From positions 168,092-232,091 of the forward strand of contig JAYPJF010000001.1 in assembly GCA_038128225.1 (NCBI GenBank): a DNA stretch of 64,000 nucleotides. The letters are read 5' to 3'. This stretch comes from a bacterium (GTDB taxonomy: Bacteria; Patescibacteriota; Minisyncoccia; Phycocordibacterales; UBA2100). Position 1 is the stretch's first letter. Every line of letters starts with the position of its first letter. The translations under genes were made by a program, and so were the position numbers. This document shows positions 506 through 9,864 of this stretch, piece after piece. The notes beneath the pieces were generated by a model. It did no database searches. It saw only the letters and a program-made list of their open reading frames with translations, and was not told the DNA's origin.

Positions 506-1723
506 ATGTCATTATTTGATCTCAAAGCACTTAATGTTGCACTTGATGAACTCCAGCAAGAAAAAGGGATTTCGCGGCAATCGGTAGTCGGTGCAATCGA
601 AACCGCTCTTGCGACCGCATACCGCCGTGAATACGGGAAGCGCGGACAAATCATCCGCTGTTCATTCAACCCAGAAACAGGTGACGCTGAATTCCGTCAG
701 GCAAAAATAGTTGTCGATAACACGCTGGTGCGCGCAGAGACGGAAGAGCCGACAGATGAAAACGACCATCGCTCGCGCTTCAACTCCGAACAACACATCA
801 TGATCGAGGACGCGCGCCGTATTCGCAAAGATGCACAACTCGATGATGAGATAACGTTTGATCTTGAGCGCCGTGATGATTTCGGCCGCATCGCTGCACA
901 AGCGGCAAAGCAGGTGGTGATGCAAAAAATCAGAGAGGCGGAGCGTGACTCCATGATGGAAGAGTTCGGTGAGCGCGAAGGTGAAATCGTGACCGGCCAC
1001 GTACAACGGTTTGAGCGCGGTAATCTTTTCATCGATCTTGGCCGTGCAACAGCAGTACTTCCCTACGAAGAACAGATACCAGGCGAACGATATCGCCAAG
1101 GCGAACGCATTCGCGCGCTCCTCTTCAAAGTTGACGAAAATGCGCGTGGCTCGTTTTTGCGTCTTTCACGATCACATCCACGATTTCTCGTAAAACTTTT
1201 TGAAACCGAAGTTCCTGAAATCGCACAAGGACTAGTTGAGGTGAAAGCGGTGGTGCGTGAACCGGGAAGTCGCGCCAAAATTGCAGTTATGTCGAAGGAT
1301 AGCCACATCGATCCAGTAGGAGCGCTTGTCGGTCAGCGTGGCGTCCGTGTCGCTGTGGTTACCTCGGAACTCGGTGGAGAAAAAATAGACGTTATTGAGT
1401 GGTCAGAAAACCCAAGCGCGTTCGTTGAAGAGGCGCTAAAACCTGCTGAAATTCTTGATATTCGCCTCGATGAAGACCAGGGTATTGCGACTGTTGAGGT
1501 TTCGGAAGACCAGCAGTCTCTTGCAATTGGACGCGGTGGCCAGAACGTTCGTCTCGCAGCGCGTCTCACAGGATGGAAAATTGACATTCGCTCAGCAAAA
1601 AGCGCTGAAACAGCAGAAGAGACGGATACTGAAGCCGCTTCAGACAAACCAACTGAAACCGCAGAAGAAGAAAATGGTGCTGAAGAAAAACAAGACGCGG
1701 CTACGAACGAAAAAAGCGAATAA
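506..1723 (+). CDS. nusA: Transcription termination/antitermination factor NusA
   Basis: Translation starts MSLFDLKALNVALDELQQEKGISR and includes S1/KH-like regions (AIGRGGQNVRLAARLTGWKIDI) and an acidic C-terminal tail. The likely start is the ATG at 506, inside the track ORF 416..1723. Confidence 0.9.
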   Translation: MSLFDLKALNVALDELQQEKGISRQSVVGAIETALATAYRREYGKRGQIIRCSFNPETGDAEFRQAKIVVDNTLVRAETEEPTDENDHRSRFNSEQHIMIEDARRIRKDAQLDDEITFDLERRDDFGRIAAQAAKQVVMQKIREAERDSMMEEFGEREGEIVTGHVQRFERGNLFIDLGRATAVLPYEEQIPGERYRQGERIRALLFKVDENARGSFLRLSRSHPRFLVKLFETEVPEIAQGLVEVKAVVREPGSRAKIAVMSKDSHIDPVGALVGQRGVRVAVVTSELGGEKIDVIEWSENPSAFVEEALKPAEILDIRLDEDQGIATVEVSEDQQSLAIGRGGQNVRLAARLTGWKIDIRSAKSAETAEETDTEAASDKPTETAEEENGAEEKQDAATNEKSE

Positions 1724-4851: not shown

Positions 4852-4906
4852 GCGCGAGCCACAAATTGTGATACGATGCGCGGGTATGGATACTCCGAAA
4901 TCACAG

Positions 4907-5455
4907 ATGTTAGTGCCGATGGTGATCGAGAAAACGAGCTTTGGCGAGCGCGCGTTTGATATTTATTCGCGTCTTCTTAAAGATCGCATTATCTTCCTCG
5001 GTGGCCCAATCGACGACCACGTGGCAAACCTCATCATCGCCCAGATGCTTTTTCTTGAGTCGGAAGACCCCAAAAAAGACATTTTCCTCTATATCAACTC
5101 CCCAGGCGGTGGCGTCACCGATGGTATGGCGATCCTCGACACAATGAACTACATTAAGCCGAATGTCTCGACTGTCTGTGTAGGTCTCGCGGCTTCGATG
5201 GCTGCCGTTTTGCTTTCCGCGGGAGAAAAAGGCAAGCGTTTTGTGCTCCCAAACGCAGAAGTTATGATTCATCAACCGCACGGAGGCGCCCAAGGACAAG
5301 CAGCCGACATTGAAATCAGTGCCAAGCGTATCATTCGAATGCGCGAACAATTGGCTCAAATATTGGCTAAAAACACCGGTCAACCCCTCAAAAAGATCCA
5401 AACCGATATGGACCGCGATTTCTTTTTAGAATCAGAAGAGGCAGTGCGATATTGA
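4907..5455 (+). CDS. clpP: ATP-dependent Clp protease proteolytic subunit ClpP. It ends at an in-frame TGA where the conserved C-terminal Gly is expected.
   Basis: Translation reads [33 protein letters not shown]...[18 protein letters not shown]...MIHQPHGG. The downstream in-frame codons encode IVDKVLK, which is the canonical ClpP tail. The track ORF begins at 4868. Confidence 0.85.
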
Positions 5456-5668: not shown

Positions 5669-7198
5669 ATGTCATTAAAAATTTTGTTAGCTTTGCTCGC
5701 AGTAGCGGGCCTCGTCGGCGGAATTGCGGGCTATTTTCTCCGATGGATAGTCGCGCTCGGGAAGCGTGGCTCAATGGAACTTGAAATCAAGCAGATGATG
5801 CTTGAAGCCCAAGAACAAGCGAAGCGTATTGTTTCAGATGCAGAGCAAGAGGCGAAAGTAAGGGAGGAAAAAGTGAGTGAAGAACAAAAAGAGCGCGAAC
5901 GCGATCTGAAGAAAGTTGAGGAACGCTTAGTGCGTCGCGAAGAACTCCTCGATAAGCGGCAGAATGATCTTACGCAAGAACAAACTGAGGTGCGAAACAA
6001 AATCGAGGAGGTACGCAAACTTAAAGAGCGTGTCGACGGTATGGCGCGAGAACGCGAAACAGAGCTTGCAAAAGTAGCAGAGCTTTCAGTTGATGACGCA
6101 AAAAAAGAGCTCGTACAAGTGATCGAAAAGCAATACGAAAACGACCTCGTGCAGCGCATTCACAAGATGGAATCGGTGGGCAAAGAACGCTTGGAACAAA
6201 AAGCTCGTGAAATCCTCACCTCATCAATCCACCGCATTGGAAATTCAGTGGTTTCCGACGTACTCGCCACCACCGTACAGCTCCCCAATGATGAGGTGAA
6301 GGGTAAAATCATTGGTAAAGAAGGGCGCAACATTCGTGCGTTTGAACGAGCGACAGGAGTTGATGTGATCATTGACGATACCCCTGGTACAATCACTCTA
6401 TCTTCGTACGACCCTGTGCGCCGCCAAGTCGCACGCGTTGCGCTTGAAAACCTTATTCTCGACGGGCGAATTCAACCAGCAAAAATTGAAGAAGTGGTAG
6501 TAAAAGCGCAAGAGGAGATTAATCACATCATGAAAAAGAAAGGTGAGGAAGCGGCGTTTAACGCGCGCGTCACCGGCCTCGATCCGAAACTTCTTACCAT
6601 ACTCGGCCGCTTATACTTCCGCACGAGTTACGGCCAAAACGTCCTTGATCACTCCGTAGAAATGGCCCATCTTGCGGGCATGCTTGCTGAGGAGTTGGGT
6701 GCAAATGTCGCGGTTGCACGCGCAGGAGCGCTCATGCATGACATTGGGAAAGCCATGGATCATGAAGTCCCCGGAACGCATGTAGAGATCGGCCGACGCA
6801 TTCTTCAGAAATTTGGTGTAGACGAGGGGGTGATAAAGGCAATGCAGGCGCACCATGAAGAATACCCGTACGAAACCCCTGAGAGTATGATTGTGCAGGT
6901 TTCTGACGCAATTTCTGGAGGACGCCCTGGGGCTCGCCGAGATTCGGTAGAAAACTACATTAAACGCCTTGAGGAGCTCGAATCTATTGCAAACAGCTTT
7001 AAGGGAATTGAAAAAAGCTACGCCATTCAGGCCGGCCGTGAAGTTCGGGTCTTTGTAAGACCTGAGGAAGTCTCGGATTATGAGGCACGCACGCTTGCTC
7101 GGAGTATCGCTGACAAAATCGAGTCAGAAATGCAATATCCGGGAGAGATCAAAGTGCACGTGATCCGTGAAAATCGCGTTATTGAGTACGCACGATAG
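5669..7198 (+). CDS. rny: Ribonuclease Y
   Basis: N-terminal TM helix, a KH domain (GKEGRNIRAFERATGVDVIIDD) and an HD domain (HSVEMAHLAGMLAEE...LMHDIGKA). Confidence 0.9.
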   Translation: MSLKILLALLAVAGLVGGIAGYFLRWIVALGKRGSMELEIKQMMLEAQEQAKRIVSDAEQEAKVREEKVSEEQKERERDLKKVEERLVRREELLDKRQNDLTQEQTEVRNKIEEVRKLKERVDGMARERETELAKVAELSVDDAKKELVQVIEKQYENDLVQRIHKMESVGKERLEQKAREILTSSIHRIGNSVVSDVLATTVQLPNDEVKGKIIGKEGRNIRAFERATGVDVIIDDTPGTITLSSYDPVRRQVARVALENLILDGRIQPAKIEEVVVKAQEEINHIMKKKGEEAAFNARVTGLDPKLLTILGRLYFRTSYGQNVLDHSVEMAHLAGMLAEELGANVAVARAGALMHDIGKAMDHEVPGTHVEIGRRILQKFGVDEGVIKAMQAHHEEYPYETPESMIVQVSDAISGGRPGARRDSVENYIKRLEELESIANSFKGIEKSYAIQAGREVRVFVRPEEVSDYEARTLARSIADKIESEMQYPGEIKVHVIRENRVIEYAR

Positions 7199-7324: not shown

Positions 7325-7597
7325 ATGAACAAAGCAGATCTGATTGATCGCATAGCGAATACCTGTGGCTGCACCAAGGCAGACGCGGAACGCATGATGG
7401 ATACGGTGATCGACACCATTACCGCTTCCCTCAAAAAAGGCGAAGAGGTTGCGATTGCAGGATTGGGTAAGTTCACCGCTAAAATGCGCGCAGGCCGCAC
7501 CGGCCGCAATCCGCGCACCGGCGAATCGGTTCAAATCCCGTCAATGCGCGTCCCTAAGTTCAGCGCTTCAAAAACACTGAAAGACGCGGTGAAATAA
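7325..7597 (+). CDS. hup: DNA-binding protein HU
   Basis: Translation reads MNKADLIDRIA...GLGKFTAKMRAGRTGRNPRTGESVQIP. Confidence 0.9.
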   Translation: MNKADLIDRIANTCGCTKADAERMMDTVIDTITASLKKGEEVAIAGLGKFTAKMRAGRTGRNPRTGESVQIPSMRVPKFSASKTLKDAVK

Positions 7598-7639: not shown

Positions 7640-7762
7640 ATGCGCGGCTATATGTGCACGCCGCTTGCTAGCTATAAGTTATTCCAAGGTGCTACCATAG
7701 ACATAGTTGCAAAGGGCAATTACTAGGCTGTCTTCCCAAGAGAAGACAGACAATGTATCACT

Positions 7763-7861
7763 ATGGATAACCAAGAATGCGTGTGCCAGGGTGCAGCCCA
7801 GTGTCCAGAAAATTGCACCTGTGATTGTCATAAGGGCGCAGAAAGCGAAACAAGTGCATAG
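7763..7861 (+). CDS. Putative 32-aa cysteine-rich micro-protein (MDNQECVCQGAAQCPENCTCDCHKGAESETSA), metallothionein-like
   Basis: Six Cys plus one His in 32 aa. A strong hairpin at 7872..7904 follows the stop immediately. The ORF is below the track size cutoff and was found by reading the sequence. Confidence 0.3.
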   Translation: MDNQECVCQGAAQCPENCTCDCHKGAESETSA

Positions 7862-7871
7862 CTTCAACAAC

Positions 7872-7904
7872 AAACACAAACCGCCTTTGAGGCGGTTTGT
7901 GTTT
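7872..7904 (+). terminator. Strong hairpin (aaacacaaaccgcc-tttga-ggcggtttgtgttt), a probable intrinsic terminator for the micro-ORF
   Basis: Perfect 14-bp stem ending in a T-rich 3' arm. Confidence 0.45.
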
Positions 7905-8078
7905 GGGAGAACTGCGCAGTAAAAGGTACGGCGCCCGTCCATTCATATATATCCGTTGTTTTGTGCAGAATACTAGAAATAGCTCTAATTCCCCACTGCG
8001 CCGACACGATCAAATTATTCTTTGCCGAACTAATCCAAGGGTTCGCGAAATGAGTGTAACTTTGTTCGTTGAATTGCA

Positions 8079-8110
8079 AAAGAAAAGCCGCTCCCGTTGC
8101 CAGGAGCGGC
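8079..8110 (-). terminator. Terminator hairpin (gccgctcc...ggagcggc) with a T-run on the minus strand, downstream of the 8122..8832 gene
   Basis: Stem seen in the sequence. On the minus strand it is followed by TTTTCTTTT. Confidence 0.5.
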
Positions 8111-8121
8111 CAGTTTAGCGA

Positions 8122-8832
8122 TTAGGCTTGGTGCGGCCAGTGCTCCGTCCCATCGGAGTCAATCCAGTGATATGACTCCGGGTCGTCCGGCGACCCGCAG
8201 GTCACGGTGGCATACCTGCCGCCGTGCTCTGCGGCGAGAAAAATCTTCGTCGCTGCGGCGCGAGCTGCCTTCTCCTGCGGAACACGGAAGCGGAAGGACC
8301 GATTCTTTTCGCCGTTCCGCCCCGAATGGGCGAAAAGGACGAGGTCACTGACATCAGCGCCTTCCTTCGTATCCCACTCGGCATGAAAGTACGCGGCATC
8401 CGCCACCATCTCCTGTTTTTCCGCGAGAAGGTTGTTGACGGCGCGGCTGGCCACCTCGCAGTCAACCTCCTCCCAAAGTTCTTCCCACAAGGTGGACATC
8501 ACTTCGGGAGAGTCCTGGTAGGTCCGGTTGTGCACACGCCGTTCGACGAAGTTGCCGCGCTTGACGAGCACGGCGATCGTCACAGCTTCCAGAAGTGGCA
8601 GTGGGATACAGAGCGAGCTTTCACCTGCCCGCACCACCACCAGGTCGAAATAAGACTCAGACGAGGAGCCCCCATCCGGGTCCTGTGTTTCGATCTCGAC
8701 CTCAAGCCCCTCAGGCTTGTTGTCGAGATACTCCTGAAGCACCACCGCGAGCGCGGTGTTGGCGAGAGAGTAGTCCCCGCCGCTGACCTGCTTTGCGCGG
8801 TTGCCGATCTGGACAATTTTGTGTAGGTTCAT
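8122..8832 (-). CDS. Hypothetical protein of 236 aa. The gene is GC-rich (about 60% against a background of about 48%) and is likely horizontally acquired.
   Basis: Intact ORF with a strong GGAGGAGGG Shine-Dalgarno site, its own consensus promoter and its own terminator. I do not recognise a family for it. Confidence 0.55.
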   Translation of the reverse strand: MNLHKIVQIGNRAKQVSGGDYSLANTALAVVLQEYLDNKPEGLEVEIETQDPDGGSSSESYFDLVVVRAGESSLCIPLPLLEAVTIAVLVKRGNFVERRVHNRTYQDSPEVMSTLWEELWEEVDCEVASRAVNNLLAEKQEMVADAAYFHAEWDTKEGADVSDLVLFAHSGRNGEKNRSFRFRVPQEKAARAAATKIFLAAEHGGRYATVTCGSPDDPESYHWIDSDGTEHWPHQA

Positions 8833-9006
8833 ATCGCCCTCCTCCGGGCTGGTTCCGCACTTGGCGAAGCCGTGAGTTCCACATCAGTTCTCTCTAATGT
8901 GGGGAAGGCCGCATCGTTGCGGCTCCAGCTTTGGCACTAGCGAAGTACCGCCGAAACTGGAGCCGCAGAGAATCTTAATCTCAAAAATCTTCTCTAATCT
9001 GATTGT

Positions 9007-9035
9007 AATATACAATGTTCTATGTTTATTGTCAA
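9007..9035 (-). promoter_or_regulatory. Near-consensus sigma70 promoter (TTGACA-17-TATATT) driving the 8122..8832 gene through a leader of about 170 nt
   Basis: Read on the minus strand: TTGACAataaacatagaacattgTATATT. Confidence 0.45.
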
Positions 9036-9165
9036 TATAAAACTGCGGACTAAACCAAAGGTGTTATAAAATCTTGAGTATCGCATGCCCAAACGTTCTT
9101 TTTTCCCAAAAGATTTAGAGTGCGCGCAGGACAGCGGCGAGCGCCCATTTACAAATCCTTGATTG

Positions 9166-9184
9166 GTGCGGGATGCGGGAATCG
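9166..9184 (-). repeat. 19-nt direct repeat of the tRNA-Gly 3' end (gtgcgggatgcgggaatcg), att-like
   Basis: Identical to 9312..9330 inside tRNA-Gly. No complete tRNA can be folded around this copy. Confidence 0.5.
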
Positions 9185-9312
9185 GTCACGAGTTTCGCTC
9201 TGCGAACCCTCGACCCCGCCTCAGCCCGGCTCGGGCTTCCGGCTTTCGATTCCCACCCTCCGTTACAAAACAACAGTCATCGTACGCTCACGCGTACTCT
9301 TCGTTTGTTTTG

Positions 9313-9383
9313 TGCGGGATGCGGGAATCGAACCCGCGACCTCAGTTTGGAAAACTGATATTTTACCATTAAACTAATCCCGC
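9313..9383 (-). tRNA. tRNA-Gly (anticodon TCC)
   Basis: Reverse complement reads GCGGGATTAGTTTAATGGTAAAATATCAGTTTTCCAAACTGAGGTCGCGGGTTCGATTCCCGCATCCCGCA. It folds as a cloverleaf with anticodon loop TTTCCAA and no encoded CCA. Confidence 0.75.
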
Positions 9384-9459
9384 ATAGGTTTGCACATACT
9401 ACCAAAATACTCCCAAACACAAAGCCCCGCTTTAGCGGGGCTTTGTTCAGTCCACTTCT

Positions 9460-9603
9460 CTATTCATCACTTCCACCCATATCAACCGTCTCCTCATCGC
9501 TCTCTTCTTCCCCCGCCTGGTCACATGTACCACCGCACGCAGAGCACACATCATCATGAGTGCATTCTGATGCATCGCATGAACACTTTCGTTGTTCGTC
9601 CAT
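9460..9603 (-). CDS. Putative 47-aa cysteine-rich acidic micro-protein (MDEQRKCSCDASECTHDDVCSACGGTCDQAGEEESDEETVDMGGSDE)
   Basis: Six Cys arranged CxC-x4-C-x5-C-x2-C-x3-C. On the minus strand a terminator hairpin (aaagccccgc-taaa-gcggggcttt, plus 9421..9444) follows the stop immediately. Confidence 0.3.
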   Translation of the reverse strand: MDEQRKCSCDASECTHDDVCSACGGTCDQAGEEESDEETVDMGGSDE

Positions 9604-9619
9604 ATTTAAAAATTAACTA

Positions 9620-9757
9620 TTATTGTTCCTCTCCTACCTCTCCCTCTTCTGCAAGATTCCCCTCCTCTGGCTCGCCTTCTCCCTCGAGATCCTCACCCAC
9701 CTCAGGCTCACCCTCTCCTTCTGTATCCGCGAGCCCAAAAACCTCATCATCAACCAT
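9620..9757 (-). CDS. Possible 45-aa highly acidic peptide (MVDDEVFGLADTEGEGEPEVGEDLEGEGEPEEGNLAEEGEVGEEQ) upstream of the Cys-rich micro-ORF
   Basis: Intact ORF on the minus strand. Its strong purine bias may instead reflect an RNA element. Confidence 0.2.
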   Translation of the reverse strand: MVDDEVFGLADTEGEGEPEVGEDLEGEGEPEEGNLAEEGEVGEEQ

Positions 9758-9864
9758 ACTTCTCAAAAATAACTTTTAAAACAACGGCATTGTATGATGG
9801 CCGTTCAGGCCGTCAAGACTTGTATTGGGGATTGAAAGTGGTCTTGTGTGAGCGTATAGTCACC

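Follow-up and report, generated by a model that had tools for sequence, protein, structure and literature searches.

In the 64-kb window analyzed in this study (the whole stretch of 64,000 nucleotides (nt) from contig JAYPJF010000001.1 of a Candidatus Kaiserbacteria genome), we found three micro-open reading frames (micro-ORFs) in the variable gap between the genes encoding HU and a trypsin-like membrane-anchored protease, a region organized around tRNA-Gly(UCC). Two of them, ORF1 and ORF2, encode six-cysteine peptides, and the third, the acidic ORF, encodes a highly acidic peptide (Table 1). An acidic micro-ORF followed by a strong hairpin recurs in the same gap of related genomes, and it is evenly balanced, in our judgement, whether the three micro-ORFs belong to a lineage-restricted polyanionic family at tRNA-Gly(UCC) whose Cys-bearing copies are species-specific. 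The Patescibacteria have tiny genomes rich in unannotated genes, among which small proteins are most often missed. Our results suggest that a terminator-bearing micro-ORF recurs at one locus across many genomes, although the databases list it only as scattered "hypothetical proteins" or lack it.

Table 1. Features of the micro-ORF region in the window.
Feature	Coordinates	Strand	Description
Inverted repeat	7728..7749	+	8-bp arms, CTGTCTTC-ccaaga-GAAGACAG; ends 13 nt before the ORF1 start; read from the sequence
ORF1	7763..7861	+	32 aa, MDNQECVCQGAAQCPENCTCDCHKGAESETSA; acidic, one Lys
T1 hairpin	7871..7905	both	Perfect 16-bp stem with A-rich and T-rich arms; begins 9 nt past the ORF1 stop
14-nt tail	7896..7909	+	TTTGTGTTTGGGAG; identical to the T2 tail (9410-9423, -)
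Insertion (~1.35 kb)	7967..9311		Between T1 and the tRNA-Gly 3' end; boundaries inferred
Orphan 236-aa ORF	8122..8832	-	Within the insertion; ~60% GC versus 45-50% around it
Partial copy of tRNA-Gly 3' end and flank	9159..9184	-	92% identical to 9305-9330 (26-nt direct repeat); followed by CCA
tRNA-Gly(UCC)	9312..9383	-	The tRNA around which the gap is organized
Extended -10	9396..9404	-	TGGTAGTAT; directly past T2; inferred tRNA promoter, read from the sequence
T2 hairpin	9421..9444	-	AAAGCCCCGC-taaa-GCGGGGCTTT, then GTGTTTGGGAG; begins 15 nt past the ORF2 stop
ORF2	9460..9603	-	47 aa, MDEQRKCSCDASECTHDDVCSACGGTCDQAGEEESDEETVDMGGSDE; six Cys in the N-terminal half, acidic C-terminal tail
Acidic ORF	9620..9757	-	45 aa, starts MVDDEVFG; first cistron of a unit with ORF2
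Promoter-like site	9789..9816	-	TTGACG-16-TACAAT; ~25 nt upstream of the acidic-ORF start codon; promoter scan

The comparison set consisted of 160 related loci collected with RNase Y as the query, and all of them are anchored on that gene. The best RNase Y identities in this set were 75-78%, with L086 as the closest relative (78%). The order RNase Y, HU, gap, and protease was retained in 106 of the 160 loci, with a gap of 49 to ~5,000 bp that mostly contains tRNA-Gly(UCC) in either orientation. An acidic ORF of 25-50 amino acids (aa), nearly free of Lys and Arg, was identified in this gap in 13 distinct related loci. We defined the family by a length of 25-50 aa, at least 20% Asp plus Glu, almost no Lys or Arg, location in the HU-to-protease gap next to tRNA-Gly(UCC) on the strand opposite to the protease, and a hairpin no more than ~25 nt past the stop codon.

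The association with tRNA-Gly(UCC) depended on side and strand. An acidic ORF lay upstream of the tRNA in the sense orientation in 9 of 115 loci, always in the order ORF, terminator, tRNA-Gly, compared with 0 of 115 for both the upstream-antisense and the downstream-sense control categories; the two downstream-antisense cases (2 of 115) were clear homologues next to a flipped tRNA. The corresponding counts at 197 other tRNAs were 1, 1, 0, and 0 over the four flank and strand categories. Moreover, 14 of the 21 such acidic ORFs in ~1.9 Mb fell in the HU-to-protease gap, and 12 of these 14 adjoined hairpins of -18 to -37 kcal/mol. The nine tandem loci shared one anatomy: no more than ~25 nt separate the stop codon from a strong hairpin bearing an A-rich and a T-rich arm, tRNA-Gly comes next, and in five of the loci (L050, L051, L062, L063, and L081) an extended -10 element, TGnTAnnAT, is placed between the hairpin and the tRNA. 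Two N-terminal types, MTFVFDE and M[DE]ENT, were distinguished in the family, with a common internal motif [DE]APATEG. In whole-locus DNA alignments, similarity was limited to the terminators and a promoter-like stretch, and a protein search with the family profile retrieved only its own members, all labelled hypothetical. As a separate observation, a 37-aa poly-acidic ORF, MDEDTMIHDSELDGVMDMGDDMGEDDEEEETGEDDEI, occurs at 734-847 (+) of L055, at a distance of ~11 kb from tRNA-Gly. Given its similarity to the D/E-M-G tails of ORF2, L056, and L081, the family may also occur away from the tRNA-Gly locus.

The window copies fit this arrangement to different degrees. The acidic ORF resembles the MTFVFDE type, and ORF2 and ORF1 resemble the M[DE]ENT type. 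ORF2 occupies the slot and shows the anatomy of the family, with its stop codon 76 nt upstream of tRNA-Gly and with the acidic ORF directly upstream of ORF2. ORF1 lies on the other side of the tRNA, on the protease strand, and is convergent with the tRNA if the insertion is discounted, mirroring L144 and L147. The hairpins following ORF1 and ORF2 lie within the distance that defines the family; after the acidic ORF, the next feature is ORF2 rather than a hairpin. A family hidden Markov model (HMM) gave scores only when its composition correction was switched off, and then placed the acidic ORF at the top of 381 window ORFs (11.6 bits), with ORF2 next (4.9 bits). Asp and Glu make up 44% of the acidic ORF, 34% of ORF2, and 19% of ORF1, the last being borderline against the 20% limit of the family, and Lys and Arg together number 0, 2, and 1, respectively. 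The three are the most acidic among the fully intergenic small ORFs of the window.

The preliminary description of this region had reported the three ORFs with their translations, six Cys in each of ORF1 and ORF2 beginning with CxC, a strong hairpin after each of these two, and a 45-aa acidic ORF preceding ORF2 on the same strand, and all of this was confirmed. The Cys residues are at positions 6, 8, 14, 18, 20, and 22 of ORF1 (CxC-x5-C-x3-CxCxC-H) and at positions 7, 9, 14, 20, 23, and 27 of ORF2 (motifs CxC and H-x3-C-x2-C-G), and neither the 32 residues of the former nor the 47 of the latter include Phe, Trp, or Tyr. ORF1 and ORF2 were the only two of 8,584 ATG-initiated ORFs of 25-60 aa in 2.0 Mb (the window plus the 160 related loci) with at least four Cys, at most three Lys plus Arg, at most one aromatic residue, and at least four Asp plus Glu, a filter picked after the two had been seen. 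They begin with MDNQ and MDEQ, compared with MDENQTPVEG for the micro-ORF of L086. AlphaFold2 models from single sequences gave a beta-hairpin for ORF1 (predicted local distance difference test score, pLDDT, 71) and a compact, moderately confident fold for ORF2 (pLDDT ~71). We link ORF1 to ORF2 because they share their composition, begin with MD[NE]Q, and have hairpins that are followed by one and the same 14-nt tail.

It is also conceivable that only the unit of the acidic ORF and ORF2 is genuine and that ORF1 arose by chance in the 230 nt separating the HU terminator from the one that serves the convergent tRNA-Gly. This explanation, which we regard as rather unlikely, would account for a codon score of -0.15, for the lack of a detected promoter, and for the absence of ORF1 from pipeline calls, and the bidirectional T1 would terminate the tRNA if the insertion is discounted. 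However, a chance origin would have placed one of the only two ORFs of such composition in 2 Mb within 1.6 kb of the other, with the same MD[NE]Q start and 14-nt terminator tail, and family members likewise convergent with tRNA-Gly are present in L144, L147, and L086.

T1 has a minimum free energy of -27.1 kcal/mol on the + strand (z = -5.6) and -26.1 kcal/mol on the - strand, and T2 one of -24.4 kcal/mol (z = -4.8); in neither case was any of 200 shuffles as stable. T1 is bidirectional, as it folds equally well on the opposite strand. Both consist of a GC-rich hairpin followed by a U-rich tract, as in intrinsic terminators, with the U-tracts interrupted. A simple terminator scan listed neither T1 nor T2, because their T-tracts are interrupted (TTTGTGTTT; U-tracts UUUGUGUUU). 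The 14-nt tail has two exact copies in the 64 kb, a match number reached in 0 of 100 shuffles, and is part of a 19-nt inverted repeat (89% complementary) whose arms flank the insertion and the tRNA. Only 16 nt without a terminator lie between the acidic ORF and ORF2, and a single promoter-like site precedes the pair, indicating that they form one two-cistron unit. Of the earlier proposal that the Cys ORFs are real, independent transcription units, the first part gains support from the terminator-bounded micro-ORF recurring at the same position in relatives, and the second does not hold for ORF2, which shares its promoter and terminator with the acidic ORF. The inverted repeat upstream of ORF1 is a possible operator or a hairpin in the 5' untranslated region.

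In the window, the ORF2 stop codon is followed by T2, TTTTGGTAGTAT, and tRNA-Gly. A further reading takes the micro-ORFs as leader peptides. A ribosome at a stop codon 9-15 nt before the hairpin would mask its 5' arm and thereby tune read-through into tRNA-Gly or promoter interference. In attenuators of the pyrBI type, a translating ribosome masks the terminator, and the micro-ORFs share with them a short ORF that ends a few nt before a strong hairpin upstream of another gene. The distance from stop codon to hairpin is 5-25 nt in every member, the tRNA promoter directly adjoins the hairpin, and GGA codons, which are read by tRNA-Gly(UCC), are frequent in several members. Unlike in the pyrBI type, however, the downstream tRNA has a promoter-like extended -10 of its own in the window and in five of nine relatives, and several members lack the tRNA downstream: at ORF1 and in L144, L147, and L086, ORF and tRNA converge or the tRNA does not follow. 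Several members also have few Gly codons or none, and terminators near stop codons are ordinary. Control of this kind is accordingly very unlikely.

Several features suggest that the acidic ORF and ORF2 are coding. In a log-odds model of codon usage for which 45 genes of the window served as the training set, the acidic ORF scored 0.79 per codon, above every real-gene fragment sampled, and ORF2 scored 0.11 per codon, within the top 4% of non-coding ORFs. Public gene calls include both; ORF1 is called by no pipeline and is absent from the protein collection. The window organism was found, in nearly identical form, in at least six public sequencing runs (SRR26337526, SRR26337528, DRR685536, SRR30758783, DRR404984, and SRR23967303). 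Only two single nucleotide polymorphisms (SNPs) fell inside the micro-ORFs, none of them in ORF1, and both were synonymous: in the acidic ORF, GGG>GGT at Gly33, and in ORF2, TGC>TGT at Cys14 (expected synonymous fraction ~0.2 per SNP; joint probability ~0.04). G occupies codon position 1 in 78% of the codons of the acidic ORF, and across the family it is found at position 1 in 50-83% and at position 2 in 3-16% of codons. Tandem Repeats Finder detected no DNA tandem repeat in the acidic region. In addition, third positions account for most of the codon variation in the conserved N-terminus M-[DE]-E-N-T (GAC/GAT/GAA, GAA/GAG, AAC/AAT, and ACA/ACG), and the +2 frame has stop codons in every family member. 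Differences between aligned family codons numbered 68 at position 1, 87 at position 2, and 135 at position 3.

The main rival is that these are transcribed non-coding units, such as small RNAs or spacer transcripts, with ORFs that are by-products of a strand poor in T and rich in purines, located in a rapidly evolving intergenic hotspot. T makes up just 9-21% of the sense strand, open frames are also seen in antisense and often at +1, the similarity within the family is largely compositional, the codon score of ORF1 is like that of non-coding sequence, and the peptides change at least as quickly as the flanking sequence (L070 and L144 are 90% identical upstream and 71% identical in the ORF). 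Such by-products, however, would not be expected to begin with ATG and to stop just before the hairpin in every member, with the +2 frame always interrupted, nor to combine a strong position-1 G periodicity lacking any DNA tandem repeat with synonymous variation in the N-terminal codons and at both SNPs. A search of Rfam, even at a relaxed threshold, returned only the tRNA and sub-threshold terminator look-alikes, with no RNA family above threshold. Taken together, a non-coding origin seems unlikely and coding is favored for the acidic ORF and ORF2 from their sequence features: the acidic ORF is probably a real gene, ORF2 leans toward being one, and ORF1 leans slightly the other way. We infer that the micro-ORFs are translated and that ORF1 and ORF2 share descent with the acidic family.

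A Shine-Dalgarno (SD)-like motif preceded only 3 of the 32 long ATG-initiated ORFs of the window. The genome hardly uses SD sequences, and the lack of one at the micro-ORFs is therefore no evidence against translation. Short AT-rich, -10-like strings were seen before many window start codons, which hints at leaderless or SD-independent initiation, and a literature search for Parcubacteria with SD and leaderless initiation found no relevant paper.

Other results weigh against a family with Cys-bearing copies. No micro-ORF of any relative contains Cys, and no Cys-rich hydrophilic micro-ORF was found in the 160 related loci. The preliminary description would be refuted if related genomes conserved only the hairpins and not the reading frames, and this is the case only in part: the Cys-rich frames are conserved nowhere, but a Cys-free acidic ORF is conserved together with its hairpin. 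The family itself was found in only ~10% of the related loci. With composition correction, no window ORF scored against the family HMM, and ORF1 was scoreless either way. At fixed composition, the similarity of ORF1 to ORF2 was not significant (p = 0.07, Smith-Waterman against shuffles). ORF1 also could not be separated from non-coding ORFs by its codon score of -0.15 per codon, and nothing above threshold was returned by the promoter scan upstream of it. The excess of position-3 differences among aligned family codons comes from a protein-guided alignment, which favors such a pattern. ORF2 had no homologue but itself among 5.8 billion word-indexed proteins or in an exhaustive phmmer search of 1.84 billion representatives. 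Finally, the spacing of 71-88 nt to the tRNA does not by itself prove orthology, as the same spacing occurs with HU upstream; it reflects the room needed for a terminator and a promoter.

Despite these points, the reading of the three micro-ORFs as one family can be put as a specific proposal. They would be copies of an unannotated tiny polyanionic family residing in the HU-to-protease gap of Kaiserbacteria-like Paceibacteria. The promoter at 9816-9789 would drive a two-cistron mRNA composed of the acidic ORF, a 16-nt AU-rich spacer, and ORF2, and this mRNA would end at T2, which abuts the putative extended -10 promoter of the tRNA itself. ORF1 would be a third copy, convergent with the tRNA, and the two would have shared the bidirectional T1 before the ~1.35-kb GC-rich insertion arrived. 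ORF1 and ORF2 would each have gained six cysteines (CxC; CxxCG; H-x3-C-x2-C) as a species-specific addition, which would most likely let a disordered acidic peptide fold around a metal/thiolate cluster (Zn, Cu, or Fe) or sense redox. The two peptides might thus act like a miniature metallothionein or zinc knuckle while being unrelated to both.

Metal binding by ORF1 and ORF2, suggested by analogy, is plausible but rather doubtful, and the complete proposal, namely a new polyanionic microprotein family tied to tRNA-Gly(UCC) and HU in which one species turned two copies into six-Cys metal- or redox-binding peptides, is improbable as a whole. If true, the candidate phyla radiation (CPR) would gain its first metallothionein-like function, and the case would illustrate how a metal-dependent fold can evolve in a disordered acidic peptide. 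If the micro-ORFs are translated, they would constitute a new small-protein family in an uncultivated lineage, with Cys copies that show a metal-binding peptide arising from a disordered acidic one. If they are not translated, the locus would harbor a recurrent small RNA unit beside tRNA-Gly.

The preliminary description had considered the Cys ORFs as metallothionein-like peptides or as precursors of Cys-crosslinked peptides. Metallothioneins include SmtA/BmtA and MymT of bacteria as well as the small CxC-rich beta-domain types of fungi and vertebrates. ORF1 and ORF2 fit their operational composition, being likewise short and rich in Cys (13-19%), with CxC and CxxC motifs and no aromatic residues, and ORF1 has a His beside its last Cys. 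They differ from metallothioneins in having only six Cys, strong acidity, a long poly-acidic tail in ORF2, no homologues, and an apparent derivation from a Cys-free acidic peptide family. Scans of the three micro-ORFs against Pfam and NCBIfam (both at E <= 1), PADLOC, and PHROGs gave no match, a PDB sequence search found no metallothionein at E <= 10, Foldseek with the ORF2 model found nothing, and BLASTP against human MT2A reached at most 15 bits. A tblastn search of the peptides against 80 of the related loci yielded only noise, and no relevant paper turned up when the literature was searched for metallothioneins or small Cys-rich proteins in the Patescibacteria or the CPR. The likeness to metallothioneins (CxC, CxxCG, H-x3-C-x2-C, and no aromatics) is a compositional analogy only.

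Crosslinked peptides are the more remote case. SCIFF peptides are six-cysteine peptides with a radical-SAM maturase, and the six Cys of the short ORF1 and ORF2 recall them, six Cys in ~45 residues being the shared trait. As precursors of ribosomally synthesized and post-translationally modified peptides (RiPPs) of the SCIFF/ranthipeptide, sactipeptide, or lanthipeptide classes, however, they would be expected to show a leader-core layout, and the Cys lie in the N-terminal half, followed by an acidic tail, rather than in the C-terminal part as in SCIFF. The SCIFF precursor model (NCBIfam, E <= 1) matched none of the micro-ORFs, nor did any other NCBIfam or Pfam model. The radical-SAM motif CxxxCxxC occurred in no ORF of at least 100 aa in the window, and no LanB, LanC, LanM, LanKC, or other maturase-like domain was present in a Pfam scan of ten large window ORFs; the genome is also small and reduced. 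A role as RiPP precursors is extremely improbable, and neither this label nor that of metallothionein is warranted.

DMP12 of Neisseria and HI1450 of Haemophilus are small acidic DNA-mimic proteins that bind HU. The micro-ORFs are likewise polyanionic and lie beside the HU gene in all loci examined, an adjacency that is inseparable from that to tRNA-Gly and the protease because all loci are anchored on RNase Y. DMP12 and HI1450 are folded proteins of ~100 aa, whereas the micro-ORF proteins comprise 25-50 aa and are probably disordered.

The genes flanking the micro-ORF region encode RNase Y (5669-7198), HU (7325-7597, with a terminator of its own), the protease (from ~9868), and CorA. A metagenome scan with the protease as the query returned no match. 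Further upstream, a strain variant at 5453 alters the stop codon (TGA>GGA) of a ClpP-like ORF delimited as 4868-5455; the public ClpP gene call ends ~26 nt further downstream, and the ORF end used here may be wrong.

The insertion adds a further layer to the region. Its 236-aa ORF has a strong GGAGG SD sequence, in a genome otherwise nearly devoid of them, and a terminator of its own at 8111-8086. It matched nothing in Pfam, NCBIfam, PADLOC, or PHROGs and had no homologue among 5.8 billion proteins. The segment appears to have been acquired horizontally and inserted at the tRNA-Gly 3' end. The 11-nt sequence TTGTTTTGTGC is present at both 7956-7966 and 9305-9315, and in several samples the public contigs break off at 9166, 9195, or 9308. 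Together with the 26-nt repeat of the tRNA 3' end, these contig ends suggest an att-like remnant and population heterogeneity in the tRNA-Gly 3' region.

Two nested inverted repeats bracket the tRNA-Gly segment, one formed by the terminator tails (7891-7909/9410-9428; 19 nt, 89%) and the other by a copy of the acidic-ORF promoter region (7943-7962/9778-9797; 20-27 nt, ~80%). Inversion of the tRNA segment between them is conceivable because the tRNA orientation differs among related genomes. Additionally, a gene of ~135-225 aa recurs beside tRNA-Gly in the gaps of L012, L078, L039/L130, L057, L089, and L127. The L012 copy (gap coordinates 136-804, -), the only one scanned, has an N-terminal helix-turn-helix (HTH) domain (Pfam HTH_23 and HTH_3) and, by eye, a LAGLIDADG-like GLYxGEG motif, which suggests a mobile or homing-type gene using tRNA-Gly as a hotspot. 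In L051 and L063, a partial tRNA-like duplicate (GCGGGTATAGTTTAGTGG...) lengthens the spacer that separates the micro-ORF terminator from tRNA-Gly to 136 and 152 nt, a further sign of repeated rearrangement at this tRNA.

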